A stretch of DNA of 32,000 bases, taken from positions 1,920,001 through 1,952,000 of the forward strand of contig NZ_CP089977.1 in assembly GCF_025643275.1 (NCBI RefSeq), written 5' to 3'. The stretch's first letter is position 1. The number at the start of each line of letters is the position of its first letter. Origin of the DNA: Moraxella nasicaprae. Lineage in GTDB: Bacteria; Pseudomonadota; Gammaproteobacteria; Pseudomonadales; Moraxellaceae. Shown here piece after piece: positions 3,635 through 30,168 of the stretch. Position numbers and translations under genes: made by a program. The notes below the pieces were generated by a model, which searched no databases, had not been told where the DNA came from, and saw only the letters and a program-made list of their open reading frames with translations.

Positions 3635-3712
3635 AAGGTTTTTTGCTCAAAGTGAGCTTGTCGAACCACAAGAAAACCGCTGCTTTCAATAAGCTTAGGG
3701 TGAAGGGTTTTG
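3635..3712 (+). repeat. intergenic palindromic repeat, copy B
   Basis: Identical 17-mer GTGAGCTTGTCGAACCA at 3652-3668, flanked by GGTTTT (3637-3642) / AAAACC (3673-3678). Downstream AAGCTTAGGGTGAA matches AAGCTCAGGGCGAA of copy A. Confidence 0.55.
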
Positions 3713-3891
3713 CTGTATGGTTTTGATGTGAATTCAGTATATATCAATGACAGACCCAGCACCAAACAATCACACCGATAGTCAATCATCGATTGATGAA
3801 AATGTCATCATAAAAATCTTGGACACTCTTTAATTATGATTCATCTGACCCCATCAATCATCATCATTGTTAAAAAAATACAGTTATCATT

Positions 3892-6036: not shown

Positions 6037-6067
6037 AAACTGATTTCTTAGTCGCATTAGAATAAAC

Positions 6068-6106
6068 TTGGGGGCAATCAAACAATAATACCCAGATTGC
6101 CCCCAA
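6068..6106. terminator. bidirectional terminator between convergent uvrB and argF
   Basis: Perfect 12-bp stem TTGGGGGCAATC (6068-6079) / GATTGCCCCCAA (6095-6106). Confidence 0.6.
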
Positions 6107-6123
6107 AGAACCGCCAAGCCCAA

Positions 6124-7038: not shown

Positions 7039-7372
7039 AAGAAACTCCTATAAAATGTAGGGAATTTATGGAATAATCCGATTATAACAAAGTTTTTTAT
7101 GATTAGAAAGTCTCAATTCATGAATTTTATTTTCTTAACCATCAACAAATTTTTTGCAAAAAATTGTCCACAAAAGACAAAGGTTGTCCGTTGTGTGGTT
7201 GCATGATACTGATTGCTAAATTTTTAAAACCAATAGAATAGGCGTTTTAGATGGAAGTAGGTGTTTTTTGCCAGCTGTTTTATCAATAATCCAAACAAAT
7301 CGATAAATTCAAACCATCACACCGCCAAATCAATCAAGATGGCGGTGAATGAGCGGTCGATATAGTCGCTGT

Positions 7373-8581: not shown

Positions 8582-8789
8582 GATGACTGGTAAAAATACA
8601 TTGCTTAAAATCAACTCATTGTAGCATAAAAAATCCCAACATGAACTCATGCAATCATCAAAAGAATATGAAGCCATGTGGTATAAATGGTTTTGCGTGG
8701 CAAAAACCCACATCAAATTGCGGTGTTTGGTTGTGTTTGGGGGTAATTTTGGGTATCATACGCACATACGATTTAATGAAGCGGTATTC

Positions 8790-9767
8790 ATGTCAAATTT
8801 TGTGAACAATTACCCAAAGCGTCCAGCATTTCGCCGCATTGGTTTGATGGGCAGAGCAGGCAAATCAAGCGTTGTGGAGACGCTTAATGAGCTAATTTTA
8901 TTACTACAAAACAGAAACTTATCCATCGTGATTGATACTGAGACGGCAGCCATTGAGGGCTTGAATGTTGATTTTGGGCAGATGGATAATCAGCGATTTC
9001 AGATTGTGCCACGCCAAAAAATTGGCGAGTACTGCGACCTTGCTATCGTGGTTGGTGGCGATGGTTCGATGCTACAAGCAGCATCGGTGCTGGCAGGGAC
9101 TGATGTGCCTGTGCTTGGCATCAATCGTGGGCGATTGGGCTTTTTGGCTGATGTCAATCCTGATGAGCTGACCGAAAAGGTGAGCCAAGTGCTTGATGGC
9201 AAATATTGGCTGGTGGAGCGATTTTTATTGAAATTTCAAATCGTGCAAAATGACTTGCAAGGTCAGCCAACCGATGCCGTCATTCATGAAGATGTTGCCC
9301 TAAATGACATTGTCCTACACGCTGGCAAGTCGGTGCATACCATTGATTTTAAATTAAAAATTAACAATAGCGATGTCTATCGTCAGCATGCAGATGGATT
9401 GATTGTCGCCACACCAACAGGCTCAACCGCTTATTCTTTATCCGCAGGTGGCCCCATCATTCACCCCACAATTGATGCCATTTGTCTTGTGCCAATGCAC
9501 CCGCACACCTTGACCAGTCGTCCTTTGGTGGTGGCGGGCAGTAGTCAGATTGCCATCAATATCCATAAAGACAATCGCACTCAGCCGATGGTTGGGGCAG
9601 ATGGTAAAGCGTCCGCACCGCTGGATAATGACCAAACTTTATTGATTGCTAAGCATCATAAGACACTATTGTTATTGCACCCAAACGGATATAGTTTTTA
9701 TGAGGCATGCCGTACCAAGCTGAACTGGAATCTGTATAGCGAAGAATTTGCTTTTGACAAATATTGA
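8790..9767 (+). CDS. nadK: NAD kinase
   Basis: GGDGSML and NRGRLGFL motifs and TPTGSTAYSLSAGGPI. Start moved to ATG 8790 (MSNFVNN...), because the track's 5' extension overlaps the divergent lipoprotein gene. Confidence 0.9.
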   Translation: MSNFVNNYPKRPAFRRIGLMGRAGKSSVVETLNELILLLQNRNLSIVIDTETAAIEGLNVDFGQMDNQRFQIVPRQKIGEYCDLAIVVGGDGSMLQAASVLAGTDVPVLGINRGRLGFLADVNPDELTEKVSQVLDGKYWLVERFLLKFQIVQNDLQGQPTDAVIHEDVALNDIVLHAGKSVHTIDFKLKINNSDVYRQHADGLIVATPTGSTAYSLSAGGPIIHPTIDAICLVPMHPHTLTSRPLVVAGSSQIAINIHKDNRTQPMVGADGKASAPLDNDQTLLIAKHHKTLLLLHPNGYSFYEACRTKLNWNLYSEEFAFDKY

Positions 9768-9801
9768 TTTTGACTGACATTGAACATAGCTGAGGCACAT
9801 C

Positions 9802-10089
9802 ATGAATAAACAAGACATTTTGGCAAACTTAACCCCAGAGATTGTGGATAAATTTCGCACCGCCATCGAGATTGGCAAATGGGAAAATGGCGAACGCTTG
9901 ACCGATGCTCAGCGTGCCACTTGTATGCAGGCGGTGATGGTGTGGGAATATGAATATTTGCCAATCACTGAACGCACTGGCTATATCCATAAACCTGTCA
10001 AAGATGACGGCACGGTGGTGGGCGAGGAGTGTGATGTGGAGCATGACCATCATTATCCTAATGAGCAGCCTGTGAAGTTTAAGCACTGA
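9802..10089 (+). CDS. YeaC-like small protein (DUF1315-type)
   Basis: 95 aa. The N-terminal pattern LTPEIVDKFRTAIEIGKWENGERLTDAQRATCMQAV matches my recollection of the YeaC/DUF1315 family. Confidence 0.7.
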   Translation: MNKQDILANLTPEIVDKFRTAIEIGKWENGERLTDAQRATCMQAVMVWEYEYLPITERTGYIHKPVKDDGTVVGEECDVEHDHHYPNEQPVKFKH

Positions 10090-10103
10090 TACGCTGTATA
10101 AAA

Positions 10104-10131
10104 AAAGACGAGTAATGATGCTCGTCTTTTT
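10104..10131 (+). terminator. rho-independent terminator
   Basis: Stem AAAGACGAG (10104-10112) / CTCGTCTTT (10121-10129) running into a T-run. Confidence 0.65.
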
Positions 10132-10298
10132 GGTCTTATGGTTGATAAGATGATGGGTGGTATTTTATGTTTTTGCAATAAAAAACATTCATGGTAAGCT
10201 GGGTTAAATCACCGTGACTTTTTTGCCCACGAGTGGGTTGGGGTAGATAGTCTGGTTTATTATTGCTTGGTTAAAATATCATTTTAAATCATCGTCAA

Positions 10299-11939
10299 TC
10301 ATGCCAAAATCCGCCAAACCACCACCAAGCCAGCCAATAATAAAAATAGCGGTGCTAGGGCAAAATGAATAAAGCTGGCACTCCACCATGCCAAAGAAAG
10401 CATCAATAGCACACCAAATCCTGCAATCCAATCGTGTCGTCTTTGATTCAAAGCGTCTGCTCGCATGGACTGTATTTCTCGCAAAATACTGTCTTGGGTT
10501 GCTCCTAGTAGGGTAAGACTTTGGATACTTTGGGTGAGTTGTTTGGGCAAATCTGTGGTCGATAACAAAATTTCTGGTAATTTACCCTTGATGTCATGTA
10601 GGTTTTTGACAGGGTCAAGCTGGTCTTTGACCCAAGCGGTCAAAATCGGCTTGGCAAGCGACCAGATGTCAAGTTCTGGGTATAGTTCTCGCCCCAATCC
10701 TTCAACATGCACCAATGTTTTAAGCAGTAGCATCAACTGAGGTGGAATGCTCATGCGATGACGGCGTGCGATGTTGAGAATTTCAAACAGCACGCCTGCA
10801 AAATCAATCTGGTCAATGGGTTTTAGCACCATGGGCGAGACGGTACGAGCCATATCCTGAATCAGAGCGTGCTTGTCAGCCGATGGTGGAATCCAGCCAG
10901 CCGCTGCGATGATTTCGACCAGCATGCCATAATTGCCATTCATCACAGACAGTAGCAGGCGTGCGACAATAAGCTGGTCTTCTTTGGACAGTTGCCCTAT
11001 GATGGCACAATCTAGCCCAATATAGCGAGGATTGGCAACAGCACCACCATCAGGCAATGTTTCTACAAAGATATTGCCAGGGTGCATGTCTGCATGGAAA
11101 AAATTATCCCGAAACACTTGGGTAAAAAAGATGGTCAAGCCTTTCTTGGCAAGTTCTGCACGGTCATAGCCTAACTCATCAAAAGTTTTGGTTTGGGAAA
11201 TGGGCATGCCAAAGATGCGTTCAGACACCATGACAGATTTGCTAGACAGATAGACTTCTGGCACATAAATCAGTCGTGAACCCAAGAAGTTTTGACGCAT
11301 TTTGGTGCTATTGCTTGCTTCAATGCTTAAATCTAGCTCGCCAAGCATGATTTGTCGATAATCCTCGACAATATCCACCAAATGCACGGCTCGGGCAGCT
11401 TCCATGCGAGCAGACACCCAAGCTGCCAATTCTCGCAAAAATTCAAAGTCCGCAACAATGCCCTCAAAAATATCTGGACGAACGACTTTGACCACAACCT
11501 CCCTGCCATCGTGCAGGGCGGCGGTATGCACTTGGGCGACGCTGGCAGCGGCCATCGGCACAACATCAAATCTGGCAAACAGCTCATCAATGGGCTTGCC
11601 TAAGCCTGTACGAGGGTCTTGGATTTGAGCAATGGCAGTCTGAACATCAAAGGGGCTGACTTTGTCTTGTAATAATGATAGCTCGTCAATGATGTGAGCT
11701 GGCAGTAAATCCGAGCGAGTGGAGAGTAGCTGCCCTAGTTTTAAAAACAGCGTTCCCATCTCTTCTAAGGCAAACTTAATCGCCAATGGCTTGGGGGTCT
11801 GTCCGATGCTGGCAGGGTGCATACGAATCAAGCGAGCAATCACAGCAAGCTCTGGAATCTCAGCCAAATAGCTATCTAGGCGATGTTTGGCGGCGATGCG
11901 ATATAGGCGAAGTAATCGACTGCGATGGGAAATAAGCAT
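10299..11939 (-). CDS. ubiB: ubiquinone biosynthesis regulatory kinase UbiB (ABC1/ADCK family)
   Basis: ABC1-kinase motifs (AAASVAQVH, VVVKVVRP, FFHADMHPGNIF), C-terminal TM segments, and position after ubiE-ubiJ. Confidence 0.9.
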   Translation of the reverse strand: MLISHRSRLLRLYRIAAKHRLDSYLAEIPELAVIARLIRMHPASIGQTPKPLAIKFALEEMGTLFLKLGQLLSTRSDLLPAHIIDELSLLQDKVSPFDVQTAIAQIQDPRTGLGKPIDELFARFDVVPMAAASVAQVHTAALHDGREVVVKVVRPDIFEGIVADFEFLRELAAWVSARMEAARAVHLVDIVEDYRQIMLGELDLSIEASNSTKMRQNFLGSRLIYVPEVYLSSKSVMVSERIFGMPISQTKTFDELGYDRAELAKKGLTIFFTQVFRDNFFHADMHPGNIFVETLPDGGAVANPRYIGLDCAIIGQLSKEDQLIVARLLLSVMNGNYGMLVEIIAAAGWIPPSADKHALIQDMARTVSPMVLKPIDQIDFAGVLFEILNIARRHRMSIPPQLMLLLKTLVHVEGLGRELYPELDIWSLAKPILTAWVKDQLDPVKNLHDIKGKLPEILLSTTDLPKQLTQSIQSLTLLGATQDSILREIQSMRADALNQRRHDWIAGFGVLLMLSLAWWSASFIHFALAPLFLLLAGLVVVWRILA

Positions 11940-17818: not shown

Positions 17819-17996
17819 CGTACTTCCTTTTTGCGTGAATAAGTTGAATAGTATAGCACCAAACCGACCAACATAAAATACAAAGCAAGGATTAAATATT
17901 GAGCAGCAGTTTAGGCAACTTGAAAGAATTTCAAAATTACCACCATCAATGCTATAATAGAGCAATTTTTTATTTTTGTTATTTTGGTTTTATATT

Positions 17997-20900
17997 ATGA
18001 ATCCATCAGCCAGCAATGCAGCCACCACCCACAAAACCCACGACCCAGCGAACTTTACCCTAACACCGCCTAGCGATTTTCCCTATCGTGATATTCAAAA
18101 GAATAACAAAGAGCGGTTAAAAGCCATTTTAAATCAAAGAATTATGTTCCTTGACGGTGCGATGGGAACAGAGATTCAAAATTATAAATTAGCCGAAGCA
18201 GATTATCGTGGCGAGCGGTTTGCTGATTTTGGCTTTGATGTTAAAGGCAATAATGATTTACTTGTATTAACACAACCACAAATCATTGAAAGTATTCATA
18301 AAAGTTATCTGGACGCTGGGGCGGACATCATTGAGACCAACAGCTTTAACGGCACACAAATCTCAATGGCAGACTACCATATGGAGCATTTGGTCTATGA
18401 AATTAACAAAACTTCTGCCCAATTAGCAAGACAAGCCTGTGATGAATATACCGCCAAAAATCCTGATAAACCCCGTTTTGTCGCTGGCGTGATTGGACCG
18501 ACTTCTCGCACTTGTTCTATTTCGCCTGATGTGAATGACCCTGCGTTTCGCAATGTGTCGTTTGATGAGCTGGTGGACAATTATACCGAAAGTACGTTTG
18601 CCTTGATTGAAGGCGGTGCGGACATTATTCTCATTGAAACCATTTTTGATACCTTAAATGCCAAAGCAGCGATTTTTGCCGTGCTTGGCGTGTTTGAAAA
18701 AATCGGTTTTGAATTGCCGATTATGATTAGTGGGACGATTACCGATGCGTCAGGGCGTACACTGTCTGGGCAAACTGCCGAAGCGTTTTATAATTCTATC
18801 AGACACGCCAATCCCATTTCCATCGGCTTTAACTGTGCGTTGGGGGCTGATGCGTTAAAACCACACATCAAAACTTTGTCTGATGTCTGCGAGACTTTTG
18901 TCTCAGCTCACCCAAATGCAGGTTTGCCCAACGAGTTTGGAGCATATGACGAAACGCCTGATGAAACTGCGACAATGGTTGCCGATTTTGCCAAATCAGG
19001 CATTGTTAATATTGTTGGTGGGTGCTGTGGCACAACGCCAGAGCATATCCGTGTGATGGTGCAAAAAGTATCTGCCTTTGCCCCACGCCAAATCCCAGAT
19101 TACAAGCCTGCTTGCCGTTTGTCAGGGCTTGAAGCCTTTAACATTACTCGTGATAGCTTGTTTGTCAATGTGGGCGAACGAACCAATGTGACAGGTTCAA
19201 AAAAGTTTTTAAGATTGATTAAAAACGAAGAATATGGGCAAGCCCTAGATGTGGCAAGAGACCAAGTAGAAGGCGGAGCCCAAATCGTGGACATCAATAT
19301 GGACGAGGCGATGCTGGACAGTAAGCAGGCGATGATTCATTTTGTCAATTTGATAGCAAGTGAGCCTGACATTAGCCGAGTGCCACTGATGATTGATTCA
19401 TCAAAATGGGACATTATTGAAGCAGGCTTAAAATGCACGCAGGGCAAAGCGGTGGTCAATTCCATATCCCTAAAAGAAGGCTATGATGAATTTGTGCAAA
19501 AAGCTAAATTGTGCAGACGGTTTGGTGCAGCGATTATCGTAATGGCATTTGATGAAAAAGGACAAGCCGATACCGAAGAGCGAAAAATTGAGATTTGTAA
19601 ACGCTCTTATGATATTTTGGTGGACGAAGTGGGTTTTCCAAGTGAAGACATTATTTTTGACCCCAATATTTTTGCGGTAGCGACAGGCATTGAAGAGCAT
19701 AACAATTATGGCGTCGATTTTATCAATGCCACAGGCTGGATTACCCAAAACCTACCCAATGCAATGGTGTCAGGTGGGGTGTCTAATGTGTCGTTTAGTT
19801 TCCGTGGCAATCCCATTCGTGAAGCCATTCACGCCGTGTTTTTGTATCACGCCATTAACAATGGTATGACAATGGGCATTGTCAATCCTGCAATGCTAGA
19901 ATTGTATGATGAGATTGACCCTATTGCTCGTGAAGCCATTGAAGATGTGATTTTAAATCGTAACAATGACAACAACGAAGCGACCGAAAAACTCTTGGAA
20001 GTTGCCGAAAATTATCACGCAGGCGACAAAGCCAAAACAGGCGGTAGTGATTTGGCTTGGCGTAATGAGAGCGTTGAAAAACGCATTGAATACGCCCTTG
20101 TCAAAGGTATTACCACTTATATTAACGAAGATACCGAAGAAGCCAGATTAAAATACCCAAAACCCTTAAATGTCATTGAAGGTCCACTAATGGACGGTAT
20201 GAATGTGGTGGGCGATTTGTTTGGGGCGGGCAAAATGTTTTTACCGCAAGTGGTCAAATCCGCCCGAGTGATGAAACAGGCGGTGGCGTGGCTCAATCCC
20301 TACATTGAAGCTGAAAAAGTCGCAGGCGAGTCTAAGGGCAAAATCCTAATGGCAACGGTCAAGGGCGATGTCCACGACATTGGCAAAAATATCGTGGGCG
20401 TGGTGCTGGGCTGTAATGGTTATGACATTGTGGATTTGGGCGTGATGGTGCCGTGCGAAAAGATTTTACAAACCGCCAAAGATGAAAAAGTGGACATTAT
20501 CGGACTGTCAGGCTTAATTACCCCAAGCCTTGATGAAATGGTCTATGTGGCAAGCCAAATGCAAGAGCAAGGCTTTAAAATTCCCTTACTGATTGGTGGA
20601 GCGACCACAAGCAAGGCACACACGGCGGTCAAAATTGACCCACAATATTCAAATGACGCAGTGATTTATGTGGCGGACGCAAGCCGTGCAGTCGGTGTAG
20701 CGACCACGCTGTTATCCAAAGAGATGAAAGAAAATTTTGTTGCTGAAACTCGTGCCGAATATCAAAAAGTGCGTGAACGGCTGGCGAATAAACAGCCTAA
20801 ATCCGCCAAGCTGTCTTATCTTGATGCGGTGGAAAACGGCTTGCAAAAAGACTGGCAGAGCTATACTCCGCCTGTACCGAACCATTTAGGGCAGCTTGTC

Positions 20901-21773
20901 TTTGATGATTATCCGTTGGAGCGTTTGTTGCCTTATATTGATTGGACGCCGTTTTTTATTTCGTGGGGTTTGGTGGGCAAATATCCGAAGATTTTTGATG
21001 ATGAAGTGGTGGGGACAGAAGCCAAAGAGCTATTTGCCAATGCAGCCGCAATGATTGACAAGCTCATCAAAGAAAAATCCGTCATCGCCAAAGCAGTGGT
21101 CAAGCTCTCGCCAGCCACTCGCACAGGGACGGATACGGTGAGCGTCAATGATGATGGCAAAGTGTATGAGTTTTATCATTTGCGTCAGCAGTCGGATAAG
21201 GTAACAGGCAAGCCCAATTATAGCCTAGCGGACTTTATTGCCCCAAGTGAAAGCGGTAAACCTGACTTTTTGGGTGGCTTTACGGTGTCCATCTTTGGGG
21301 CAGAAGAATTGGCAGACGAATACAAGGCAAAGGGCGATGATTATAATGCCATTATGGTGCAAGCGGTGTGTGATAGGTTTGCCGAGAGCTTTGCTGAAGC
21401 CTTGCACGAGCGGGTGCGTAAGGAATTTTGGGGATACCAAGCGGACGAAAGTTTCACCAACGATGAGCTGATAAAAGAAAAATATGTCGGCATTCGTCCT
21501 GCCCCGGGTTATCCTGCCTGTCCAGAACACACCGAAAAAGGCACGCTCTTTGAGTGGCTTGATACTACCGCCACCATCGGCACTTATTTGACCGAAAGCT
21601 ATGCAATGTATCCACCGTCTAGCGTATCGGGCTTTTATTATAGCTTGCCTGAGAGCTGTTATTTTAATGTCGGCAAAATCAGCCAAGACCAATTAGAGCA
21701 TTACGCTAAACTTAAAGGGTGGGATTTAAATACCGCTAAGAAATGGCTAAATCCGAATTTGGGGGAGGTGTGA
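17997..21773 (+). CDS. metH: cobalamin-dependent methionine synthase
   Basis: Homocysteine-binding ([11 protein letters not shown]), pterin-binding, B12-binding ([11 protein letters not shown]) and AdoMet-activation domains. Start placed at ATG 17997. Confidence 0.95.
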
Positions 21774-21943: not shown

Positions 21944-22030
21944 GCCAGTGTGGTGAAATTGGTAGACACGACGGATTCAAAATCCGTTGCCTTTAAAAGC
22001 GTGTCGGTTCGAGTCCGACCACTGGTACCA
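21944..22030 (+). tRNA. tRNA-Leu (anticodon CAA)
   Basis: Acceptor stem GCCAGTG/CACTGGT, anticodon arm ACGGA-TTCAAAA-TCCGT, long variable arm, GGTTCGAGTCC T-arm and encoded CCA. Close to the E. coli leuX-type sequence as I remember it. Confidence 0.92.
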
Positions 22031-22036
22031 TCTAAG

Positions 22037-22065
22037 AAAAAGCCCTGATTATTCAGGGCTTTTTG
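22037..22065 (+). terminator. rho-independent terminator after tRNA-Leu
   Basis: Stem AGCCCTGA (22041-22048) / TCAGGGCT (22053-22060) followed by TTTT. Confidence 0.75.
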
Positions 22066-22199
22066 CTATCTTGCCATCTTTGACACCTGTTATCATCTCA
22101 ATAATAACAGTATATATGACAGTATGCGACTATAAATACCGTCAAAATCACAAAAAGTATACTGTTATGGTTCATCAAAACCTTTTTAAAATTTGGTTG

Positions 22200-22545
22200 A
22201 TTTGATTTATTTGCCCATCGGCACAATATGTCTGTAAACTCCACACTCGCCTGACCATTCATTTTGGTTAAATCTCTATGAATGCCTAATGGGAAATTGG
22301 TTGATAATGAGCAAACTGCCAATGCCAGATTGCTTATCAATCATATCAAGCAGTATAGGGTATATCTGCGGTAGCAATTTGCCCATCAATAATTAACAAA
22401 TCCACTCTGCGGTATTTTTGCTTAATCTTAGCAATACCACTATCAGCGATTGATAAAATGATGTCTTCATATAAATCCCCAGCTTAAACAAATAACACTT
22501 TCTTTGGTTTGTGATAATCATGAGTACCCAAAGCTCATTAGCTCC
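22200..22545 (-). pseudogene. degraded IstB/DnaC-like AAA+ ATPase remnant (IS21-helper type), spread over three frames
   Basis: Minus-strand pieces read KESVICLS / GDLYEDIILSIADSGIAKIKQKYRRVDLLIIDG (Walker B-like, 22346-22483), LLDMIDKQSGIGSLLIINQFPI (sensor-1-like, 22276-22350) and ...TDILCRWANKS. Stops and frameshifts separate them. Confidence 0.35.
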
Positions 22546-22574
22546 TGCCGTAATCTGTAATAATACCACTTTGA

Positions 22575-23702
22575 GCCGACCTGACCACCATCACCCACAA
22601 CGGACAAACCCAAACCACCATCCCCCAAAACCAAAACATCTTAAATGAACTAAACACACAATTAACCCAAGATACAACCGCCAAAGACACCCAAGTCTTT
22701 TTAACTCCAAACACCACCAACACAAAAGACGAGCTGGTTCAAGGGCTTGCCAATCCTAGCAAAGGACACACCTACCTTGACATAGACCATCTGGACAATG
22801 CCATAGAAACCCTAAACCACGAAATCGCCCATCACAATGGCTTAGGAGAAACTTCTGCCACAAGAATGGGCAAAATCTCTGATTTGGCGTATAATATTGG
22901 CATCAGTCTTAACCAAGGGGACATCAATACTCATAGACAAGCCATCACACCAACTGCTCAAACCCTGCAAGGTTTAAGCACCGAAGATAGACTTGCTTAT
23001 CACGCTCAAAATCAAGCCTTGCTTGATGCCAATCAAGAACAGCTTAAGGGGGAGAAGGATAATGGGGATGGGGTTTGGAATAATCGCTACATTCCTCCGC
23101 TTATCAACACCAACAACCCAAATGCAAGAAGATGGAATGTAAACAATAATCCTCACGCTCTCACGGTTCGTAGAGAAATAGAGGTTATTCGTCAAACTTA
23201 TCCAAACTTTGGTGGTATCCAACAAATTACAAATGGACCAGTTACCCGAAGAGAAGCGGCTGAATATACCGCCTTTCGTATGTTTATTAGACATGGTACA
23301 AATCAGACCCATTCTAACCATAATGCTGCTTACGATGCTTTTAGAGCAAGTCCTTATTATCAAAATTTAAATAGACCCAATTCCACACAACTTAATATTG
23401 GGTTAAATAATGCTAATTACAATGTTGCTAGGCATGAGCAGATTAATAATAGAGTTATTTCTTTTGGACAAAATTCCAATCAAATAAACCACACATGGCG
23501 ACACTTGGAAGCAAAAGGCATTAGTAGACATATTGCTGAACCTGCTATAAGAAATGATCTTGGAAGAAGGGATTTGAATTCCATCCCTATAGGCATAACC
23601 AAAGGGTTTAAGATTACAATTAATGGTCAGCAAGTCCAGTATTATATTCATAGAATTGGCGTTAATCAGTACAATATAGGTAGATCCCATGTTAAAAGAT
23701 GA
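22575..23702 (+). CDS. 5'-truncated polymorphic-toxin gene end: T/N/Q-rich exoprotein segment, conserved pre-toxin block, and a unique ~225-aa C-terminal toxin domain (CT1)
   Basis: Frame 3 is open from the TGA at 22572-74 to TGA 23700-02, with no credible start or RBS at the 5' end. Block 22811-23016 recurs at 27182-27387. The unique C-terminal end overlaps a small ORF, as in toxin/immunity pairs. Confidence 0.65.
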   Translation, partial: ADLTTITHNGQTQTTIPQNQNILNELNTQLTQDTTAKDTQVFLTPNTTNTKDELVQGLANPSKGHTYLDIDHLDNAIETLNHEIAHHNGLGETSATRMGKISDLAYNIGISLNQGDINTHRQAITPTAQTLQGLSTEDRLAYHAQNQALLDANQEQLKGEKDNGDGVWNNRYIPPLINTNNPNARRWNVNNNPHALTVRREIEVIRQTYPNFGGIQQITNGPVTRREAAEYTAFRMFIRHGTNQTHSNHNAAYDAFRASPYYQNLNRPNSTQLNIGLNNANYNVARHEQINNRVISFGQNSNQINHTWRHLEAKGISRHIAEPAIRNDLGRRDLNSIPIGITKGFKITINGQQVQYYIHRIGVNQYNIGRSHVKR

Positions 23703-24063
23703 TATGAAACTGCGTTTTCTGTGCGAAAGTGAATTATTGCTAATTTCTAAATTACTGGACTTGTGTACAGCATCTTATAAACTTCAATCATCGCTCGAGC
23801 AAATATTGGTTTTTGATTTGACTGATGATGGAGGTATGGGTTCTTTGGAATTTTTTTATGACAGCGATTGTGTGAGGGAATTTGATAAACCGTTAATACA
23901 AGCTGAGACTTATGATACTGATGGTAGAAAGATAATGCTTGAATTGTCTTTGGATAATTATGGTTATTTGTATCAGCTAGATAGCTGGACATCTGATTTT
24001 AACCCACTGGTTAGCCCATTAGGCACATTAAATATTTTAGAGAACATAAGACTTGATTTCTAG
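23689..24063 (+). CDS. putative immunity protein for CT1 (acidic, 124 aa)
   Basis: The ATG lies 14 nt inside the toxin frame (alternative ATG at 23704). The DDGGMGSLEF ... LDSWTSDFNPL pattern resembles small immunity families seen next to Rhs/CdiA toxins (from memory, unverified). Confidence 0.6.
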   Translation: MLKDDMKLRFLCESELLLISKLLDLCTASYKLQSSLEQILVFDLTDDGGMGSLEFFYDSDCVREFDKPLIQAETYDTDGRKIMLELSLDNYGYLYQLDSWTSDFNPLVSPLGTLNILENIRLDF

Positions 24064-24136
24064 GTTGGTTAAGGTAAATTTTAGTTTAGGTCTTAAAATA
24101 CTGGCTATTATTGCTGTTTTATCTGATTAGGACTAT

Positions 24137-24262
24137 ATGTTGGTTAAAGACAATGCGGCTGGAAAACCAACTGCTCATGGTGGAAGTTACTGGAAGCTCT
24201 TAGATAAGCATGGTAATAGAATAGGTACACTTTCAAAAGATGGTATATATTTACGCAAATAA
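24137..24262 (+). pseudogene. orphan toxin 3' tail (41 codons)
   Basis: Reads ...AAGKPTAHGGSYWKLLDKHGNRIGTLSKDGIYLRK*. The frame opens only at 24131 and there is no RBS. It ends 17 nt before the next small ORF. Confidence 0.45.
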
Positions 24263-24279
24263 TATTTGAGGTAATGTTA

Positions 24280-24725
24280 ATGCATAATTTTATATATGTT
24301 TGTTATTTATCTTGTTTTGATCACTGGCTTACAGAGATAGAGGCTGATGAGTGTCAAATTTTAATCTTTGATATTGCAAAAGACAACAGAAATTTGGATG
24401 AGTACTTTGAAGGGGAAAAAAGATTTTTGGGTTTTTATACTGCAATCTCTGATTTGGTTGAAGATGTGAAAACTAATAAGCTTTTTAATACAAAATCAAA
24501 AAGTTTTCAGGAGATTTTGTTAAATAGCCTAAGAGAAAAGTCCCTAAAAGAAATTTATTATCCTGAAAAAAAATTTTAGTCAAAGGTGGTTATGATAGAA
24601 CAGACCTCATCTTTATCCCCAATCAAGATATTTTGAATTATATTCAGCAATTGGCACAAGAAAATAATTTATTTATTATTGAAATTATTGATTACAATGA
24701 TTACTTGTTAAATTATGATGATTAG
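24280..24725 (+). pseudogene. immunity-like gene split by a frameshift in an A8 run
   Basis: GAGGT RBS before ATG 24280, and the frame stops at 24577-79. One extra A in the A8 run (24566-24573) would join it to frame 3, ...KKILVKGGYDRTDLIFIPNQDILNYIQQLAQENNLFIIEIIDYNDYLLNYDD* (to 24725). Confidence 0.45.
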
Positions 24726-24728
24726 TAA

Positions 24729-24878
24729 ACCCTCTCCGATGCCACAGGCATCAGCACTAAGGTACTGCTTACCAGCATTACCGCCCAAAGAGGCATTCAA
24801 GGGGGAACTAACAAAGTACTGACCGTCATAGATACCCATGACAAACTATTGGCTCATCATCTAAAACATTGGAGTTAA
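24729..24878 (+). pseudogene. orphan exoprotein/toxin fragment, possibly a diverged pre-toxin block end
   Basis: A relatively GC-richer 150-nt frame, TLSDATGISTKVLLTSITAQRGIQGGTNKVLTVIDTHDKLLAHHLKHWS*. ITAQ..IQG and D.LLAHH echo ITPTAQTLQG and D.LAYH/LAHH of the repeated block. A minus-strand reading cannot be excluded. Confidence 0.3.
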
Positions 24879-24885
24879 AATTCGA

Positions 24886-25302
24886 ATGAAACAGATTGAA
24901 CTAATTATCCATACCTTTTTAAATCGTCATTTTGCTTCAGAGCTTTACTTTCTTTGGGATGTTGTTTGTGGGGTTAGTGAAAATCGCATACAACCACCCT
25001 GTGAAGAAATTATTTATGATAACGAAACGGCATTTTTTCTCGCTTTGGAATTCTTGTTTGCCCAAAACTACTGTCACTTAATAACCAATGATGGTAATAA
25101 AGAGATTGATGACGAAATAGCCAAGATGGATGCCAAACAAGCTTGTCAGCTACTTAAAGATGTTTGGATTGGTGAGGAGGCTATGAATAAGCTTGATGAA
25201 GAAAATCAGTATGTTGGTTGGTGGTTTAGGATATTATGCCCCTATAACATCGTTCATCGATATGTAGATGAAGATGGTGAAGAGAGATGGGTTCTTAATT
25301 GA
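24886..25302 (+). CDS. putative immunity protein (acidic, 138 aa)
   Basis: GGAG about 11 nt upstream of the ATG. AT-rich, acidic, Trp-rich C-terminus. It directly follows a toxin-like fragment. Confidence 0.5.
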   Translation: MKQIELIIHTFLNRHFASELYFLWDVVCGVSENRIQPPCEEIIYDNETAFFLALEFLFAQNYCHLITNDGNKEIDDEIAKMDAKQACQLLKDVWIGEEAMNKLDEENQYVGWWFRILCPYNIVHRYVDEDGEERWVLN

Positions 25303-25308
25303 TTAGCT

Positions 25309-25343
25309 CGTAGGTTGGGTTGAACAACAGTGAAACCCAATAT
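25309..25343 (+). repeat. partial copy (left arm) of the MITE-like element
   Basis: CGTAGGTTGGGTTGAACAACAGTGAAACCCAATAT matches the first ~35 nt of the element at 25760. It contains the hairpin TTGGGTT/AACCCAA. Confidence 0.6.
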
Positions 25344-25496
25344 TTATCAGGTGGAAATTTATCCCATACTGAAAGAAAGTTTAGTCTGTACGATGGTTAT
25401 TTATCTAAATCTGATACAATAATATTTCATATCAGTTCAAATATTTTATATGACCCTAAAATTACCTATGATTGTAAAAAAAGTGAAAGTGGGTAA
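25344..25496 (+). pseudogene. orphan toxin 3' tail
   Basis: Frame 3 reads LSGGNLSHTERKFSLYDGYLSKSDTIIFHISSNILYDPKITYDCKKSESG*. It has no start, and the frame opens inside the repeat. Confidence 0.35.
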
Positions 25497-25540
25497 TCAA
25501 GAAACCCAAATTTGCCAACCTAAAAAATAGCGGAGTTTTT

Positions 25541-25744
25541 ATGAACAAACAAACCTCTTTTAATCCCTATTCTCAAGAAATGTTACCAGAGGGGTTTAAA
25601 TATCCAAAAAGCTACCTTGAATTATCCAAAGATACTTCAAGCATTAACTGGGACAGCCCTGCAGATACCATCTATTCCTCCCTCTATCAAGCCAAACTAT
25701 TAGCTGAGTTTCACTTGGCTTTGATGGGGGGGGTTGGTGCTTAA
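25541..25744 (+). pseudogene. truncated immunity-like ORF (67 aa) containing a G8 run
   Basis: GGAG RBS. The N-terminus LPEGFKYPKSYLEL resembles SMI1/KNR4 (SUKH)-type immunity N-termini. The ORF ends just after G8 (25726-25733) and just before the MITE-like element. Confidence 0.4.
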
Positions 25745-25759
25745 TCACACCAAAACAGC

Positions 25760-25855
25760 CCGTAGGTTGGGTTGAACGGCAGTGAAACCTAAGCATTTAT
25801 GGTGTAACCAATTGATTTTATTGGATTGGGTTTCGTACCTCAACCCAATCTATGG
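25760..25855 (+). mobile_element. MITE-like ~96-bp element with terminal inverted repeats
   Basis: Left end CCGTAGGTTGGGTTGA versus the reverse complement of the right end, CCATAGATTGGGTTGA. Internal hairpin ATTGGGTT/AACCCAAT. A homologous copy lies at 27063-27152. Confidence 0.6.
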
Positions 25856-25923
25856 GTGGTGCATTAGGTGGAGCGGTTATGATTTGCTCAAAAAAAGTAG
25901 GAGATGCTTGTGTCAATCAATGA
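25852..25923 (+). pseudogene. orphan toxin 3' tail (Gly-rich, Cys-x7-Cys end)
   Basis: ...GGALGGAVMICSKKVGDACVNQ*. This is related to the end of the 26181-26348 frame. Confidence 0.35.
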
Positions 25924-25977
25924 TGGTTATTATAAGAATAGAACTAAGTTGAGAAACTTTCATATCAGCTTGCTAAT

Positions 25978-26184
25978 ATGCTTTTTTTATTTCTCACTAT
26001 AGCTATGTTGGCATATCTTAGATTTGTACTTCTTGCTAAAATAGTGTTCTATGTGATGTTTTTATGCATATTTCATACTTTTTATCGATGCTTTATTCTT
26101 CACCAGCATGTTATGGGAAAAATGAAAAAAAAGAAGAAAGAAGGGGTAAATCCCATTTTTGATATAGATATTTTTGATGATTGA
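25978..26184 (+). CDS. small membrane protein, putative immunity (68 aa)
   Basis: Two hydrophobic segments followed by a Lys-rich and then acidic tail. A T7 run at 25982-25988 could hide a frameshift from an upstream ATG at 25904. Confidence 0.5.
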   Translation: MLFLFLTIAMLAYLRFVLLAKIVFYVMFLCIFHTFYRCFILHQHVMGKMKKKKKEGVNPIFDIDIFDD

Positions 26185-26348
26185 TATTAAAGGGCGTTAT
26201 TGTCCCTATTGCTGGCATCAAGGGAAATGTTACTCTTTACGGAAATGGCTCTACCAGTTACTCTTATGGTCAATCGGTAGGTGCTGAAGCTGGGGTTGCT
26301 ATACAAATATGTGAAAATAAAACATCTGAATACTGTTCCCAACAATAG
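26181..26348 (+). pseudogene. orphan toxin 3' tail (Gly/Ser-rich, Cys-x7-Cys end)
   Basis: ...KGVIVPIAGIKGNVTLYGNGSTSYSYGQSVGAEAGVAIQICENKTSEYCSQQ*. The only possible start is a TTG at the frame opening. Confidence 0.4.
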
Positions 26349-26356
26349 AGGTAAAA

Positions 26357-26575
26357 ATGAATAAACATATTATCTATACATTTATCGCAGTTTGGCTATT
26401 TGGTATAATCACAGGAATTTTGGGTTTTTTGATAGACATCAATATCTACATCCACAATATTATACTTGCCATCTCGGTCTTTTTTACAATACTTCTATCT
26501 TTATGCATAGGTGGATTTGTTTTTGATTCAAATATTAAATTTTTTAAAAAAATTTTAAGAAAAAAAATCAAATAA
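26357..26575 (+). CDS. small two-TM membrane protein, putative immunity (72 aa)
   Basis: GAGG RBS 5-6 nt upstream of the ATG. Two clear TM segments and a basic C-terminal tail. Confidence 0.55.
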   Translation: MNKHIIYTFIAVWLFGIITGILGFLIDINIYIHNIILAISVFFTILLSLCIGGFVFDSNIKFFKKILRKKIK

Positions 26576-26576
26576 T

Positions 26577-26669
26577 GCAGGTGTGGACTTGCTAGATACT
26601 GAGTCTAGAATCAAGTATGGTTGCCACATGTTAGGATATACAGCAGCACAAGGCTGTAAATTAAAATGA
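26577..26669 (+). pseudogene. orphan toxin 3' tail
   Basis: AGVDLLDTESRIKYGCHMLGYTAAQGCKLK*. The stop overlaps the next ATG (ATGA 26666-26669). Confidence 0.3.
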
Positions 26670-27012
26670 ATAATTACATTCTTTTTTCTTATATGCACTT
26701 TCATCGGTCATTGCTGGTTTTTCTTTTGGGCTATGTATCTATATTATAGAATGGGTTGCTCAAAGTGGGGCGGAAATGCCATTTGCTTTCGCCTTTTTTT
26801 CCAGTATGGGCTATGCGATTTTGGGCCTTCCCAATACATCAATTTTATTTGGGGTTGATATTACCATAGAGGAATATTGGCAAGCTATGAGTAAATACAA
26901 AATTTTTTTTCTAATGATATTGGGTGGTATTCTGGCTGTTATATGCCCACCTTTGATTTTTCTTACTATCGGTGAAGAATTTGATATAATTAGAATTACT
27001 GGGTTTTTATAA
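26666..27012 (+). pseudogene. membrane immunity-like gene split by a frameshift in a T6 run
   Basis: ATG 26666 (frame 2) stops after 27 codons. One extra T in the T6 run (26682-26687) joins it to frame 1, ...LYALSSVIAGFSFGLCIYIIEWVAQSGAEMPFAFAFF..., which is the track ORF 26776-27012. Confidence 0.45.
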
Positions 27013-27062: not shown

Positions 27063-27152
27063 CGGTAGGCTTGGGTTGGCGATAGCACAACCTAGGCATT
27101 ATGATGTAACTCATTGAATTTGTTGGTTTTCGTACCTCAACCCAATCTACGG
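27063..27152 (+). mobile_element. MITE-like element, second full copy
   Basis: Collinear with 25760-25855 and in the same orientation. The right end TTCGTACCTCAACCCAATCTACGG is nearly identical. Confidence 0.6.
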
Positions 27153-27167
27153 GCTTAAGATTTGTAA

Positions 27168-27425
27168 AACCTATTTCTTCTCCCAAACCACGAAATCGCC
27201 CACCACAATGGCTTAGGAGAAACTTCTGCCACAAGAATGGGCAAAATCTCTGATTTGGCGTATAATATTGGCACAAGTCTTAATAAAGAGGACATCAATA
27301 CTCATAGACAAGCTATCACACCAACTGCTCAAACTCTACAAAATCTAAGCACCGATGAACAGCTTGCTCACCACACAAACAACCAAGTAATCTTATTGGA
27401 GGAGATTCTTTGGCAGTGGCTTTAA
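27168..27425 (+). pseudogene. second copy of the pre-toxin block with a degraded toxin
   Basis: 27182-27387 aligns without gaps to 22811-23016 (offset 4371). The frame opens at 27168 and stops about 20 codons after the homology ends. Confidence 0.65.
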
Positions 27426-27456
27426 ATGTGGATTATAATGGCGTTCCTGCAAAAAT

Positions 27457-27597
27457 ATGGGCGATGAACATATTAGAATTGCTGGTACAAGATACAATCG
27501 AGGTTTAGAGTTATCAAAAGAGAAAATAGAGCAAGATACATCATACGGGGACAGTATCTTAAAAAGAAAAAACAAACTAAAAGAGTTAATAAAATGA
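27457..27597 (+). pseudogene. probable last piece of the degraded second toxin (46 codons)
   Basis: MGDEHIRIAGTRYNRGLELSKEKIEQDTSYGDSILKRKNKLKELIK*. The stop overlaps the next ATG (ATGA 27594-27597). Frames 3, 2 and 1 each carry an open piece across 27168-27597. Confidence 0.35.
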
Positions 27598-27962
27598 AAA
27601 TAATGAATATTGCATTATCGATTTGCATTTGTTTTTTTATATTTATTTTTCTAAACAAGTATGATTCTTGGGGTATTTCTGAGGGGCTGTGTATTTATCA
27701 TGGTAACTCTGTAGGTGTCGCTCTAATACTATCCTTTATTTTATTTTTTGCAAATTTTTTATTTTTGTTTTTCTTTAGGGATAAACAAACAATGACCAAC
27801 ATTATATTTATTATCATCTCGATTGGTCTTTTGGCGTATTGGCATCCTGTAATGTACAATCATTCAATAAATTTTCTATTAACACACACCAATATCCAAA
27901 TAGAACAACTTGGCGAGATTGCTAGATGTGAGATACAACGCAATAACGACCTAAGGTTTTAG
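27594..27962 (+). CDS. polytopic small membrane protein, putative immunity (122 aa)
   Basis: Four hydrophobic segments. Translationally coupled to the preceding toxin-end frame. Confidence 0.55.
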   Translation: MKIMNIALSICICFFIFIFLNKYDSWGISEGLCIYHGNSVGVALILSFILFFANFLFLFFFRDKQTMTNIIFIIISIGLLAYWHPVMYNHSINFLLTHTNIQIEQLGEIARCEIQRNNDLRF

Positions 27963-28078: not shown

Positions 28079-29344
28079 TCATTCACCATCAACAATAATG
28101 ATATTTCGTTCGATGAGAGCTGTTTGCCAAGCAACAAGATGCTCCAAGCCAATCAGTTCTACCGCCAAACCTTGTGGGTTATTGGCAAGTTGGTCGATTT
28201 TTCTTAGCGAGCCACGATCAGGTGGTCGATGTGCTGAAACGCCAAGATATATCTGGGCTTGTACCGAAGCTGCCAAAGCGAGTAATTTGGCAATATCGTC
28301 AGCATCATCAACCACGCCAAACTGTTCAAGGGCGACATATTTGGTGGGTGTGCTGTCTGGGTATTCAAAATTTGCCCCAATCAATCTATCGCTGAGTGTT
28401 TGGGTCTGTTTGGAGGTGGGCTTACTGGGCTGGTAGTCGTCTTGGTCGATGACTTGTTTGCTGAATTTATTTAGTAATTCTTGATAATATGGCAAATTGG
28501 TATCAATGGTAAAATTGGTATTGGCACGCAGATGACTAATCAGATATGCCAGTAATCTAGGAAAAATGCCGTATAGACCAATGCTTGCGATGATTAGCCA
28601 AGCAAATGTGGCAGCGTGAGCGTTCGTATTGTTAAGGTCTGGTAAAGCAAGCCCAAATTGTTTTGGTAAAAAGCCTAATATCTGTACCATCATTTCAAAA
28701 TGATGTTTTTGTAATAATGTCGAACCCCAAACAAAATCATAGCGTTTGAACAAAAATAAACCTAACAAACCCAGCAAACTGCCCAACAGACCAAATAGCC
28801 AAGCACCGTGCATTACTTTGGCGATGTGCCATTTTTTCTTCTGAGCGATGCTTTGTTCGATGACGGCGATGGCGGCTTGTTGGCTGGTGTTTTGCCCAAA
28901 AGCCTTAGCAATGGGGGTGTGTAGCGTGCTTTTTTCAAGCAAAAGCCCAAATAATGACGGTCTGCGTCTGCCCAAGCTAATCAGCCAAAAAACCAGCGAC
29001 AATGTATGCCAGCCTAATAAAGCAATCAGCACATAGAAAAAATTAACCGCTTGTGAGCTGAGTAATCCTGCCACGCCAAGCAATGCAAAGAAAAAATAAC
29101 CCATGTACAGCATACGCACAGCGGTGCGAATGTATAGCTGGCTATTTTCAAGTGCGTCCATCAGCTCGCCTGTGCTATCAATCTTGACAGCTCGCAAAAA
29201 TAGCTTGTCATAAGCGGACTCATCGCCTGTTTTTAGGGTTTCGGTGATGAGTTTGGGGTTTTGAGCAAAAATAAAGTTTTGTTGTTCAAGCTGGCGAATC
29301 AGCTCGACATGTTGGTGCTGGCGTTGGGTGTATTGATGGTTCAT
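28079..29344 (-). CDS. polytopic membrane protein (DUF2868-like by recollection)
   Basis: 421 aa with a soluble N-terminus, several TM helices and a soluble C-terminal domain. The ATG overlaps the stop of the rnfB-like gene (ATGA at 29341-29344). Confidence 0.55.
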   Translation of the reverse strand: MNHQYTQRQHQHVELIRQLEQQNFIFAQNPKLITETLKTGDESAYDKLFLRAVKIDSTGELMDALENSQLYIRTAVRMLYMGYFFFALLGVAGLLSSQAVNFFYVLIALLGWHTLSLVFWLISLGRRRPSLFGLLLEKSTLHTPIAKAFGQNTSQQAAIAVIEQSIAQKKKWHIAKVMHGAWLFGLLGSLLGLLGLFLFKRYDFVWGSTLLQKHHFEMMVQILGFLPKQFGLALPDLNNTNAHAATFAWLIIASIGLYGIFPRLLAYLISHLRANTNFTIDTNLPYYQELLNKFSKQVIDQDDYQPSKPTSKQTQTLSDRLIGANFEYPDSTPTKYVALEQFGVVDDADDIAKLLALAASVQAQIYLGVSAHRPPDRGSLRKIDQLANNPQGLAVELIGLEHLVAWQTALIERNIIIVDGE

Positions 29345-30168
29345 GGCGATAGAGCATTGAGTTGTTGGGTAAGGTGGTTAAGTTGTTCTTGGAGTGCTGC
29401 ATCATCACGCACTGCCAGTTGTTTGGTCAGTTTTTTGATTTGGGTGCGTAATTTGGCAGCCAAAATGGTGTTTTTAGCGGTGGTTTCATCAATGGCGGTC
29501 TGCTCGCCACTTAGCACATTGGCGATGGCGGATTCAATGGTGCTAACCACAGGTTTATCGCCAGTTTCAATGGTTTTGGTCATACGCCCCAGATGTCTAT
29601 GGTAGCGGATTCTTAGGTGTGTTTGTTCGTTTTGTCGTTCTTTGTCGGTCAGGGTGCGTGGATATGGCACAAGGCTGATGCAGTCCACAGGACAAGGGGC
29701 AATACATAGCTCACAACCTGTGCATAGCTCATTGATGATGCTGTGCATGTGCTTAGCCGTGCCAATGATGGCATCAACAGGGCAGGCGGGAATACATTTG
29801 GTGCAGCCGATACAGCTAGATTCATCGATGACGGCTCGCATTTCTATGGGGCGATTGGTATGTTCGTCAATGGGGTGTTTGCTGGGTGTGGCTGGTAAGT
29901 ATGTGCTTTGTTGCAAAGAGGCGATTTGGTCGCTGACCGCCTGACCGCCTGGCACGCATAGATTGGTTGGTTCGCCATTGATGACGATGCCGTAGGCATA
30001 AGGCAGGCAGCCATCGTGATGCCCACATAGTCCGCATTGGGTTTGGGGCAAGATGGCATCGATATTGGCGATGGCGATTTTTTGGCTGGCTGGTAAGCGG
30101 TCAATGGCTAGCGGAGAAAACAAAATGGGCAAATCGCTTAATCTGTCCAGATGAGTGGTGTCAGTCAT
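29341..30168 (-). CDS. RnfB/RsxB-like iron-sulfur ferredoxin without an N-terminal membrane anchor
   Basis: LPQTQCGLCGHHDGCLPYA...CVPGG cluster motif plus two 4Fe-4S motifs, CIGCTKCIPACP and CTGCELCIAPCP. Long helical C-terminal extension. Confidence 0.8.
   Translation of the reverse strand: MTDTTHLDRLSDLPILFSPLAIDRLPASQKIAIANIDAILPQTQCGLCGHHDGCLPYAYGIVINGEPTNLCVPGGQAVSDQIASLQQSTYLPATPSKHPIDEHTNRPIEMRAVIDESSCIGCTKCIPACPVDAIIGTAKHMHSIINELCTGCELCIAPCPVDCISLVPYPRTLTDKERQNEQTHLRIRYHRHLGRMTKTIETGDKPVVSTIESAIANVLSGEQTAIDETTAKNTILAAKLRTQIKKLTKQLAVRDDAALQEQLNHLTQQLNALSP

Follow-up and report, generated by a model that had tools for sequence, protein, structure and literature searches.

Orphan toxin/immunity cassettes that are exchanged by recombination are well known for the contact-dependent growth inhibition (CDI), Rhs and Maf systems. 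The orphan modules made up of a C-terminal toxin (cdiA-CT) and an immunity gene (cdiI) keep the homology that precedes the VENN motif and fuse to cdiA by recombination, as documented in Yersinia pestis (Poole et al., 2011, PMC3150448), and in Acinetobacter the class-3 type-II CdiA proteins carry a PT-LPEN motif and have displaced orphans, according to the sections covered of De Gregorio et al. (2019, PMC6336857). It is also an established idea that a built-in peptidase frees the toxin; for the type V (TpsA) toxins the only protease named is HINT, with DUF637 and PT-VENN as pre-toxin domains, a metallopeptidase releasing domain being listed for the PVC (Photorhabdus virulence cassette) systems only (Zhang et al., 2012, PMC3482391). 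The 32 kb of DNA considered here (the whole stretch, referred to below as the window) belong to Moraxella nasicaprae, the open reading frame (ORF) of 278 amino acids (aa) at 22866-23702 (P0001) matching a protein from this species at 100% identity, and they contain two copies, A and B, of a block of 206 nucleotides (nt). With a probability that we put at about 0.8, these copies are the toxin-proximal part of the CdiA pre-toxin region, carried by displaced orphan cassettes, in which the block serves as a recombination handle. The system is of a known kind, and what is new in it is a pre-toxin region that is not of the VENN type, is absent from Pfam and NCBIfam, and has a boundary motif of its own.

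Copy A (22811-23016) and copy B (27182-27387), which the preliminary description of this DNA had aligned without gaps at a constant offset of 4371, do align in that way in a repeat search of the window, with 181 of the 206 positions identical (88%); a separate count gave 25 mismatches (87.9% identity), 18 of which fall within the first 185 nt, where about 17 had been estimated. The other direct repeats of at least 40 nt in the window are merely 41-45 nt long at 71% identity, so the A/B repeat is far beyond chance, and just beyond either end of the block the matching of A and B is at chance level. There are 2 mismatches in block nt 1-92 (positions 3 and 22, with a perfect run of 70 nt), 6 in nt 93-153 and 17 in nt 154-206. 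Both copies share the reading frame NHEIAHHNGLGETSATRMGKISDLAYNIG...LA(Y/H)H, in which 7 codon differences are synonymous and 12 non-synonymous, and their 3′ ends are indeed unrelated, as had been noticed: A runs into an intact C-terminal domain of 205 aa (stop at 23702), and the frame of B stops at 27425. The two modules consist of the following features, where L numbers denote related loci and P numbers proteins:

22575-23702, forward: orphan A, truncated 3′ end of cdiA plus the predicted toxin CT1 (open frame of 375 codons).
22587-22616, forward: remnant of upstream CdiA, TITHNGQTQT, about CdiA residues 2834-2843 (tblastn with M. lacunata CdiA and P0052-P0055).
22811-23016, forward: block copy A (repeat search, alignment).
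23017-23090, forward: remaining conserved pre-toxin up to the family boundary (..NQALLDANQEQLKGEKDNGDGVWN), missing from B (homologue alignments, comparison of 19 instances).
23091-23702, forward: CT1, variable CdiA-CT of about 205 aa (86% aa and 91% nt identity to orphan o1 of M. bovoculi).
23689-24063, forward: cdiI of CT1 (DUF6984), overlapping the toxin stop codon (PF22480, E 1e-22).
27182-27387, forward: block copy B, in the open frame 27168-27425, with homology beginning exactly at the N-HEIAHH codons (repeat search).
27396-27567, forward: deletion junction and frameshifted tail of a P0006-type toxin, with about 185 codons missing (alignment to P0006).
27594-27962, forward: cdiI of the copy-B module, a hydrophobic protein of 122 aa (72% identical to the M. 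cuniculi ORF located just after P0006, L013 11038-11424).

The close homologues of the block are all from Moraxella (206-554 aa) and have in common MGK..AYNIG.SLN..I..HRQ.ITPT..., after which they end in unrelated C-termini that include PT-HINT, peptidase C39 and PF21814, and many that match no family. The expectation that larger genes would have the block at their 3′ end was borne out, the genes concerned being very large. In M. lacunata (L004) it occupies residues ~3024-3125 of a protein of 3341 aa with N-terminal ESPR and two-partner secretion (TPS) domains and a C-terminal CDI_toxin_EC869_like domain; in M. bovoculi it lies about 200 codons before the stop of an ESPR/TPS CdiA of 3312 aa; and M. 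cuniculi has it in a TpsA whose length is at least 2804 aa, besides four further orphans. When 1.84 billion representatives were searched exhaustively with HMMER, only 34 relatives were obtained, from Moraxella, Psychrobacter, Acinetobacter and one Marinospirillum (a TPS/hemagglutinin-repeat protein of 2516 aa, matched at residues 2046-2164), to which the pre-toxin region appears so far to be restricted. When metagenomes were scanned with the N-HEIAHH-NG codon pattern, the yield was only two contigs, which are both of M. lacunata type and add no new junction. From its position near the 3′ end of full-length genes with a TPS domain, the block is identified as the toxin-proximal conserved part of the CdiA proteins of one family, which supports the earlier view of it as the pre-toxin segment of a polymorphic toxin.

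The block also heads orphans located downstream of the full-length genes of M. lacunata, M. bovoculi and M. cuniculi. In M. bovoculi the order is CdiA, Imm8, an orphan with a CT1-type toxin (P0002) and a DUF6984 gene, and the vicinity of this cdi locus includes insertion sequence (IS) elements, a PT-HINT orphan and a cdiB of the ShlB type. A and B likewise both head 5′-truncated orphan cdiA-CT/cdiI modules. In M. porci (L003), a cdiA of the VENN class (100-7392, with DUF637, PT-VENN and PT-HINT) is followed by an orphan at 8789-10528 that carries about 560 residues of the 3′ part of the LPEN class; the orphans of one CdiA class are here stored behind a gene of the other class, where the block cannot pair with the resident gene.

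Orphan A has no start codon before the internal ATG at 22866 (at MGK), and the NCBI annotation includes only the 278-aa part. It is 77% identical to residues 2970-3127 of the M. lacunata CdiA, with TITHNGQTQT joined directly to approximately residue 2970, so that some 127 codons are deleted, including the LPNN motif and a hydrophobic stretch. CT1 itself gave no Pfam or PDB match. It is modular, in that P0003 of M. lacunata has its first ~195 residues and another C-terminal domain after ..ARHEQINNR, and its last ~95 residues (region 23409-23684) have a 35% identical counterpart at the C-terminus of the 340-aa protein P0020, whose N-terminus resembles a signal peptide. The best-conserved element is the immunity gene, which at the aa level is 96% identical to its counterparts in M. 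bovoculi and M. lacunata and has a ratio of non-synonymous to synonymous substitution rates (dN/dS) of 0.17, against 0.54 for CT1 (dS 0.15, with respect to M. bovoculi o1), and such conservation would fit a retention for protection.

Module B is more degraded. Its frame at 27168-27425 lacks a start codon and is followed by broken frames and then by the hydrophobic ORF of 122 aa at 27594-27962. Residues 28-97 of P0006 (27186-27395) continue directly with residues 283-299 (27404-27454) and, after the frameshift, residues 297-337 are found at 27445-27567. The P0006-type toxin is weakly SLT-like (E 0.005, below the cutoff). Both of the toxin/immunity pairings of the window recur in other species.

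The preliminary description had placed the limit between the conserved and the variable parts at ...STxxxLAxH, and on this point it has to be corrected: the conservation continues for some 25 codons, and it is an internal deletion of ~185 codons in copy B that brings the similarity of the two copies to an end at LAxH. Orphan homology to the M. lacunata CdiA starts at very different residues (2566, 2718, 2783, 2869, 2900, 2942, 2970, 3024, 3038, 3040 and 3057) and almost always ends at residues 3122-3127, and the homologues align to the window only as far as 23081-23090. When 19 non-redundant instances from 11 loci were compared, the 72 residues before this limit had a mean identity of 70% (minimum 53%) and the 100 residues after it one of 24% (median 19%); some ten different toxin types are represented. 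The true boundary is therefore E-S-G-D-(G/E)-hydrophobic, about 25 codons past LAxH. In the family the conserved run extends to ..NQALLDxNxxQLxGExESGD(G/E) plus a hydrophobic residue, at ~23081-23096 of the window; the boundary sequence is ..E-x-E-S-G-D-(G/E)-(F/V/I/M)-(E/W/Y)-(S/N/D), and the equivalent in Psychrobacter and Acinetobacter is ..Q-x-x-G-D-x-F-E-(D/N). STxxxLAxH is an eight-residue insertion specific to Moraxella, 25 codons before the boundary and missing in the remote relatives; as a boundary motif it is ruled out by this restriction, by the family conservation up to ESGD and by the deletion junction of copy B.

In other words, the proposed contrast between a conserved 5′ side and a hypervariable 3′ side exists, but after ESGD (70% against 24%) and not at LAxH. 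The two findings named in advance as contrary to the proposal, a block missing from larger genes and a lack of variation downstream of it, were both looked for and neither was encountered. It was also correctly seen that the motif is not VENN, in view of the lack of a PF04829 or PF04830 match and of a VENN string in the window fragment or the M. lacunata CdiA. The boundary, together with the limits of the cassette (~23090 to ~24105), allows a correct annotation of toxin and immunity genes in the sampled Moraxella, including the livestock-associated M. bovis and M. bovoculi.

The evidence for recombination lies in the block itself and in what follows it. Over block nt 1-92, A and B are 98% identical, whereas any copy from another species is 79-93% identical to either; over nt 93-206 they are 80% identical, and B is nearest to orphan o3 of M. 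lacunata (87%) and to M. porci (86%). A and B are the nearest relatives of each other only over nt 1-92, and this heterogeneity has a Fisher p of 5.5e-5, the observed maximum chi-square being reached in 0 of 5000 permutations. Such a mosaic would be expected if one resident sequence had been joined by successive cassettes through crossovers within the block, and the divergence indicates crossovers both there and at the end of the block. Between orphan A and o1 of M. bovoculi, the block has 76% nt identity (dS ~1.0), CT1 91% (dS 0.15) and cdiI 97% (dS 0.10), and in a sliding window along this pair the identity changes from 60-87% to 91-100% at ~23090-23100, keeps that level over ~1.0 kb and falls to chance at ~24105; the cassette so delimited (23091-24105) corresponds to L010 10223-11270. 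From a cassette at 91-97% next to a block at 76%, it follows that CT1-cdiI moved between lineages independently of the block to which it is attached. One and the same CT is part of the full-length cdiA in L013 and an orphan in L002, L003 and L007. These results agree with what has been published on VENN-type systems (PMC3150448) and on Acinetobacter (PMC6336857).

If these footprints are put together, a simple sequence of events can be proposed. All cassettes have ~0.2-0.5 kb of pre-toxin sequence in common, which would allow homologous recombination of the RecA type to cross over there, the partner being a full-length cdiA, another orphan or incoming DNA; the crossover would join a new CT/cdiI pair and push the old one downstream, and the array of the window would be the residue of such events. 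That the recombination is RecA-mediated and serves toxin switching is what we infer.

The 5′ limit of the cassettes deserves a separate observation. In seven orphans with four unrelated upstream sequences, homology starts within ~10 nt of AACCACGAAATCG, that is, the N-HEIAHH codons; these orphans are those at 27182 in the window, ~4118 in L007, ~3340 in L009, ~3744 and ~6182 in L013, ~14136 in L004 and ~7111 in L001. A recurrent and near-exact 5′ cassette boundary at this point is not accounted for by random truncation.

Had the 206 nt been recently duplicated as a segment inside the M. nasicaprae genome, the 98% identity of the first 92 nt would find an explanation, but the flanks of A and B are unrelated on both sides, the second half of the block is no nearer to its partner than to the copies of other species, and A and B head different cassettes, each with an orthologue of its own in another species; this origin was rejected on those grounds as very improbable. 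It is a real possibility, if a minority one, that the modules are a pure fossil, that is, inert remains of cassettes driven out of a cdi locus that has since disappeared or never existed in this place, with no current switching. This would fit the lack of cdiA and cdiB in the window, the internal deletions or frameshifts in both orphan frames, an island full of toxin/immunity fragments and of elements resembling miniature inverted-repeat transposable elements (MITEs), and the interpretation of the Acinetobacter orphans as remnants of displaced genes in the sections covered of De Gregorio et al. (PMC6336857). It fits less well with a CT1 and a cdiI that are intact and constrained (dN/dS 0.54 and 0.17), with a cdiI that is 96% identical across three species, and with a perfect A/B run of 70 nt, ample for recombination; besides, a fossil is compatible with a handle at the level of the family and is at odds only with its present-day use. 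The same facts bear on the recombination handle, and several weigh against it. The 32 kb hold no cdiA, cdiB, TPS, ShlB, POTRA or other secretion genes, and metH, the DUF2868 gene, the Fe-S gene at 29341-30168 and the tRNA region have no matches in any related cdi locus; nothing indicates, therefore, that this site was ever occupied by a complete one. Both frames are damaged, orphan A being without ~127 pre-toxin codons and orphan B without most of its toxin, and by their sequence neither would be expected to give a normal product without further repair. Recombinant junctions were not directly observed, and the conservation of the block could owe mainly to protein function. Queries with the C-terminal region of the M. 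lacunata CdiA and with its TPS domain, in search of a full-length M. nasicaprae CdiA, retrieved no M. nasicaprae entry, all the matches listed being of less than 1000 aa, and the contig collection that supplied the related loci returned no M. nasicaprae locus, not even that of the window, the species being probably outside the collection. With no full-length recipient in the window and both orphans internally deleted, toxin switching is not shown to be possible in M. nasicaprae; what stands of the proposed handle for toxin switching is the recombination footprints in the block and at its end. As the modules are stranded by tRNA-Leu, in a window without cdiA or cdiB and with their toxin frames damaged, the handle is most likely a relic in this region of the genome, whose remaining use would probably lie in the conserved immunity genes and in being possible donor DNA. 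The preliminary description was right about the kind of element (orphan toxin cassettes with a non-VENN handle) and wrong about the boundary, the present-day function at this place being unproven.

Two further explanations for the conservation of the block concern what it encodes or contains, for which these features have to be added:

22674-22958, forward: pre-toxin core, modelled as zincin-like with a three-stranded sheet, an HExxH helix and two further helices (AlphaFold2, predicted local distance difference test (pLDDT) 90.4).
22818-22850, forward, and 27189-27221 in copy B: codons of HEIAHHNGLGE (HExxHxxGxxE), by direct reading.
22867-22895, forward, and 27238-27266 in copy B: candidate sigma-70-like promoter TGGGCA-N17-TATAAT (consensus scan).

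In the metzincins the motif has the spacing HExxHxxGxxH/D, and HEIAHHNGLGE has a metzincin-like spacing with Glu in the third position. A second explanation, tentative and, on balance, unlikely, is that the block is conserved as part of a small zincin-like module, metal-binding or a peptidase, with a role in processing or releasing CdiA-CT, its use in recombination being a by-product. The AlphaFold models, built from shallow alignments, are confident both for residues 1-221 of P0004 (pLDDT 90.6, predicted template-modelling score (pTM) 0.90) and for the core, with HEIAH on a helix after the three-stranded sheet. The most conserved columns of the family are H5, G8, G10 and E11 (the second His, two Gly and the Glu, at +6), all Moraxella copies retain HEIAH, and the dN/dS of the block is 0.18. 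Compared with the PDB by Foldseek, the full 221-residue model has no significant match, zinc peptidases coming top at E >1, and the trimmed core finds zinc metallopeptidases almost exclusively, with abylysin (4jiu) as the best match (probability 0.99, E 0.03, template-modelling score (TM) 0.46, root mean square deviation 3.3 over 71 columns), accompanied by IrrE/PprI, selecase, 3lmc, anthrax lethal factor and collagenases, but none of these reaches E 0.001 and TM is at most 0.47. At the sequence level, the block, orphan A and their homologues match no family in Pfam or NCBIfam; the profiles A3 and A4 gave nothing meaningful against PDB sequences, a single match at E 5e-4 being a designed repeat protein in which no stretch is significant by itself; and no curated peptidase family was matched in the Pfam, NCBIfam and PDB sequence searches, even at E 10. 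Moreover, 5 of the 19 aligned sequences of the family have another residue in place of the first His or the catalytic Glu (HAIAH, HDAAH, HDATH, EEIAH, EEITH), and the sheet is missing from seven orphans, copy B among them, as they start only at the HExxH codons. The resemblance to peptidases is only suggestive.

It is rather improbable that the orphans keep the block for an internal promoter that transcribes the downstream CT/cdiI, above all the immunity gene. The candidate TGGGCA-N17-TATAAT, formed by the MGK and AYNIG codons, is present in both copies; no variation is seen at the synonymous sites of TAT-AAT (19/19 and 18/18 instances) and GGC, in 18-19 of the 19 instances altogether, while the adjacent codons vary freely and the codon use in cdiA is 65% for TAT, 62% for AAT and 37% for GGC; the shortest orphans (o1 of L010 and of L004) still retain the stretch; and orphan regions are transcribed in Escherichia coli EC93 (PMC3150448). 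On the other hand, the site is a consensus match only, 36 such sites being found in a scan of the island where 27.6 are expected by chance, and the instances are phylogenetically related, which makes the argument from synonymous sites a weak one. A broader combination, in which the block is half of an uncatalogued minimal zincin-like domain of the LPEN-class CdiA of Moraxellaceae that frees the toxin during delivery, and the orphan cassette is a mobile unit that starts at the HExxH codons (seven modules, four unrelated upstream contexts) with its own embedded immunity-gene promoter, is doubtful, and the peptidase reading within it is a lead with the odds well against it. If the domain does cleave, it would offer a handle on how the CdiA toxin leaves the filament, and, if true, a type V secreted toxin would here possess a "releasing peptidase" that is a metallopeptidase.

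The modules are found in an island of ~6 kb, between tRNA-Leu and the DUF2868 gene, whose guanine and cytosine (GC) content is 0.30-0.38, against 0.42-0.50 in the flanks. On its left are uvrB, an ABC1 kinase, a PHO4 transporter and truD, then metH (17976-21773) and tRNA-Leu(CAA) (21944-22030), and on its right the DUF2868 gene (28079-29344, reverse strand), a gene with a 4Fe-4S ferredoxin domain (29341-30168), and the genes of a NUDIX hydrolase and of an exonuclease of the RNase T family. Apart from the two modules, the features of the island and its borders are as follows:

21944-22030, forward: tRNA-Leu(CAA), left border of the island (ARAGORN).
24137-27012, forward: degraded remnants of further toxin/immunity modules (tblastn of related-locus ORFs, ORF list, Pfam).
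24690-24893, forward: fragment of the ORFs of 685-716 aa of L001 and L004 (tblastn).
25305-25340 (partial) and 25759-25856, no strand assigned: further MITE-like copies.
25459-25527, forward: tail of the 553-aa orphan toxin of L013 (tblastn).
25511-25657, forward: start of the immunity gene (SMI1_KNR4-like) of that toxin (tblastn).
27063-27153, no strand assigned: MITE-like element with terminal inverted repeats of 17 nt, ending 28 nt before copy B.
28079-29344, reverse: DUF2868 gene, right flank of the island (PF11067, E 1e-38).

The ~540 bp from tRNA-Leu to the start of the cdiA homology (22031-22575) have no match in the related loci and contain no integrase. The fragment at 24690-24893 matches residues ~67-180 of large ORFs in the orphan arrays of M. 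bovis (L001 8503-10560) and M. lacunata (L004 16040-18145), ORFs that have only weak Pfam matches to DUF4225 and DUF7436, and the stretch 24137-27012 also holds several small ORFs, some of them for membrane proteins. An inverted repeat of 30 nt, 90% complementary, joins the DUF6984 gene (23930-23959) and the SMI1_KNR4-like fragment (25620-25649), 1.66 kb apart. The MITE-like element, of ~95 nt and with termini CCCGTAGRTTGGGTTGA, is confined within the window to the island, where 4 termini are found against 0.05 expected, and is also present between orphan modules of M. cuniculi (L013 7540-7626). A terminator scan of the island gave none.

If these modules are compared with those described in other bacteria, their structure is that of the orphans of E. 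coli EC93 and EC869, Yersinia and Neisseria (PMC3150448): toxin fragments truncated at 5′ and without a start, each followed by a small immunity gene, with varied lengths of cdiA homology that end abruptly at the boundary between pre-toxin and CT, and cassettes that are highly identical between species. They differ in that the Moraxella family is without VENN or PF04829 and has its boundary at ESGD(G/E)-hydrophobic, after an HExxH domain, and in that the array of the window adjoins a tRNA gene and is not located 3′ of a cdiBAI cluster, the position occupied by the modules of M. bovoculi, M. lacunata and M. cuniculi.

The PT-LPEN CdiA of Acinetobacter belong to the same family, Moraxellaceae, and in the sections covered of PMC6336857 their orphans are read as displaced remnants. 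In the M. lacunata CdiA, ..GREGIKKEQKDLPNN.. matches the Acinetobacter PT-LPEN sequence ..GRAEIVQQQKDLPEN.. given there, with QKDLPNN (motif QKDLP(N/E)N; the pattern of the class is ..G-R-x-x-I-x-x-x-Q-K-D-L-P-E-N..) ~235 residues before ESGD; in Acinetobacter and Psychrobacter, LPEN, LPQN or IPEN precedes the remote homologues of the block (P0050, P0034, P0035); and the motif has been deleted from orphan A and is not present in orphan B. By this motif, in M. lacunata and in the remote relatives, the Moraxella genes would be LPEN-class CdiAs with a further conserved domain between LPEN and the variable toxin. In the part covered of that study the variable region starts at LPEN, whereas in Moraxella there are ~235 more conserved residues, which include the block, and variability begins from ESGD. 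The passages covered of its main text make no mention of HExxH, zincin or peptidase. A poor optical character recognition of its supplementary alignment appears to give TTGHEIAH after LPEN in bau-D2.

The block also resembles the pre-toxin domains of Zhang et al. (PMC3482391), as a conserved module directly N-terminal to a polymorphic toxin, and is unlike them in matching no Pfam model derived from that work. As for the minimal zincins (the minigluzincins abylysin and selecase, IrrE/PprI and the archaemetzincin-like 3lmc), the likeness is that of a core of ~95 residues with a three-stranded sheet, an HExxH helix and a following helix; the differences are a similarity that stays below significance, with no relationship at the level of the sequence, a third ligand that would be the Glu six residues after the second His, and catalytic residues that are not universally kept.

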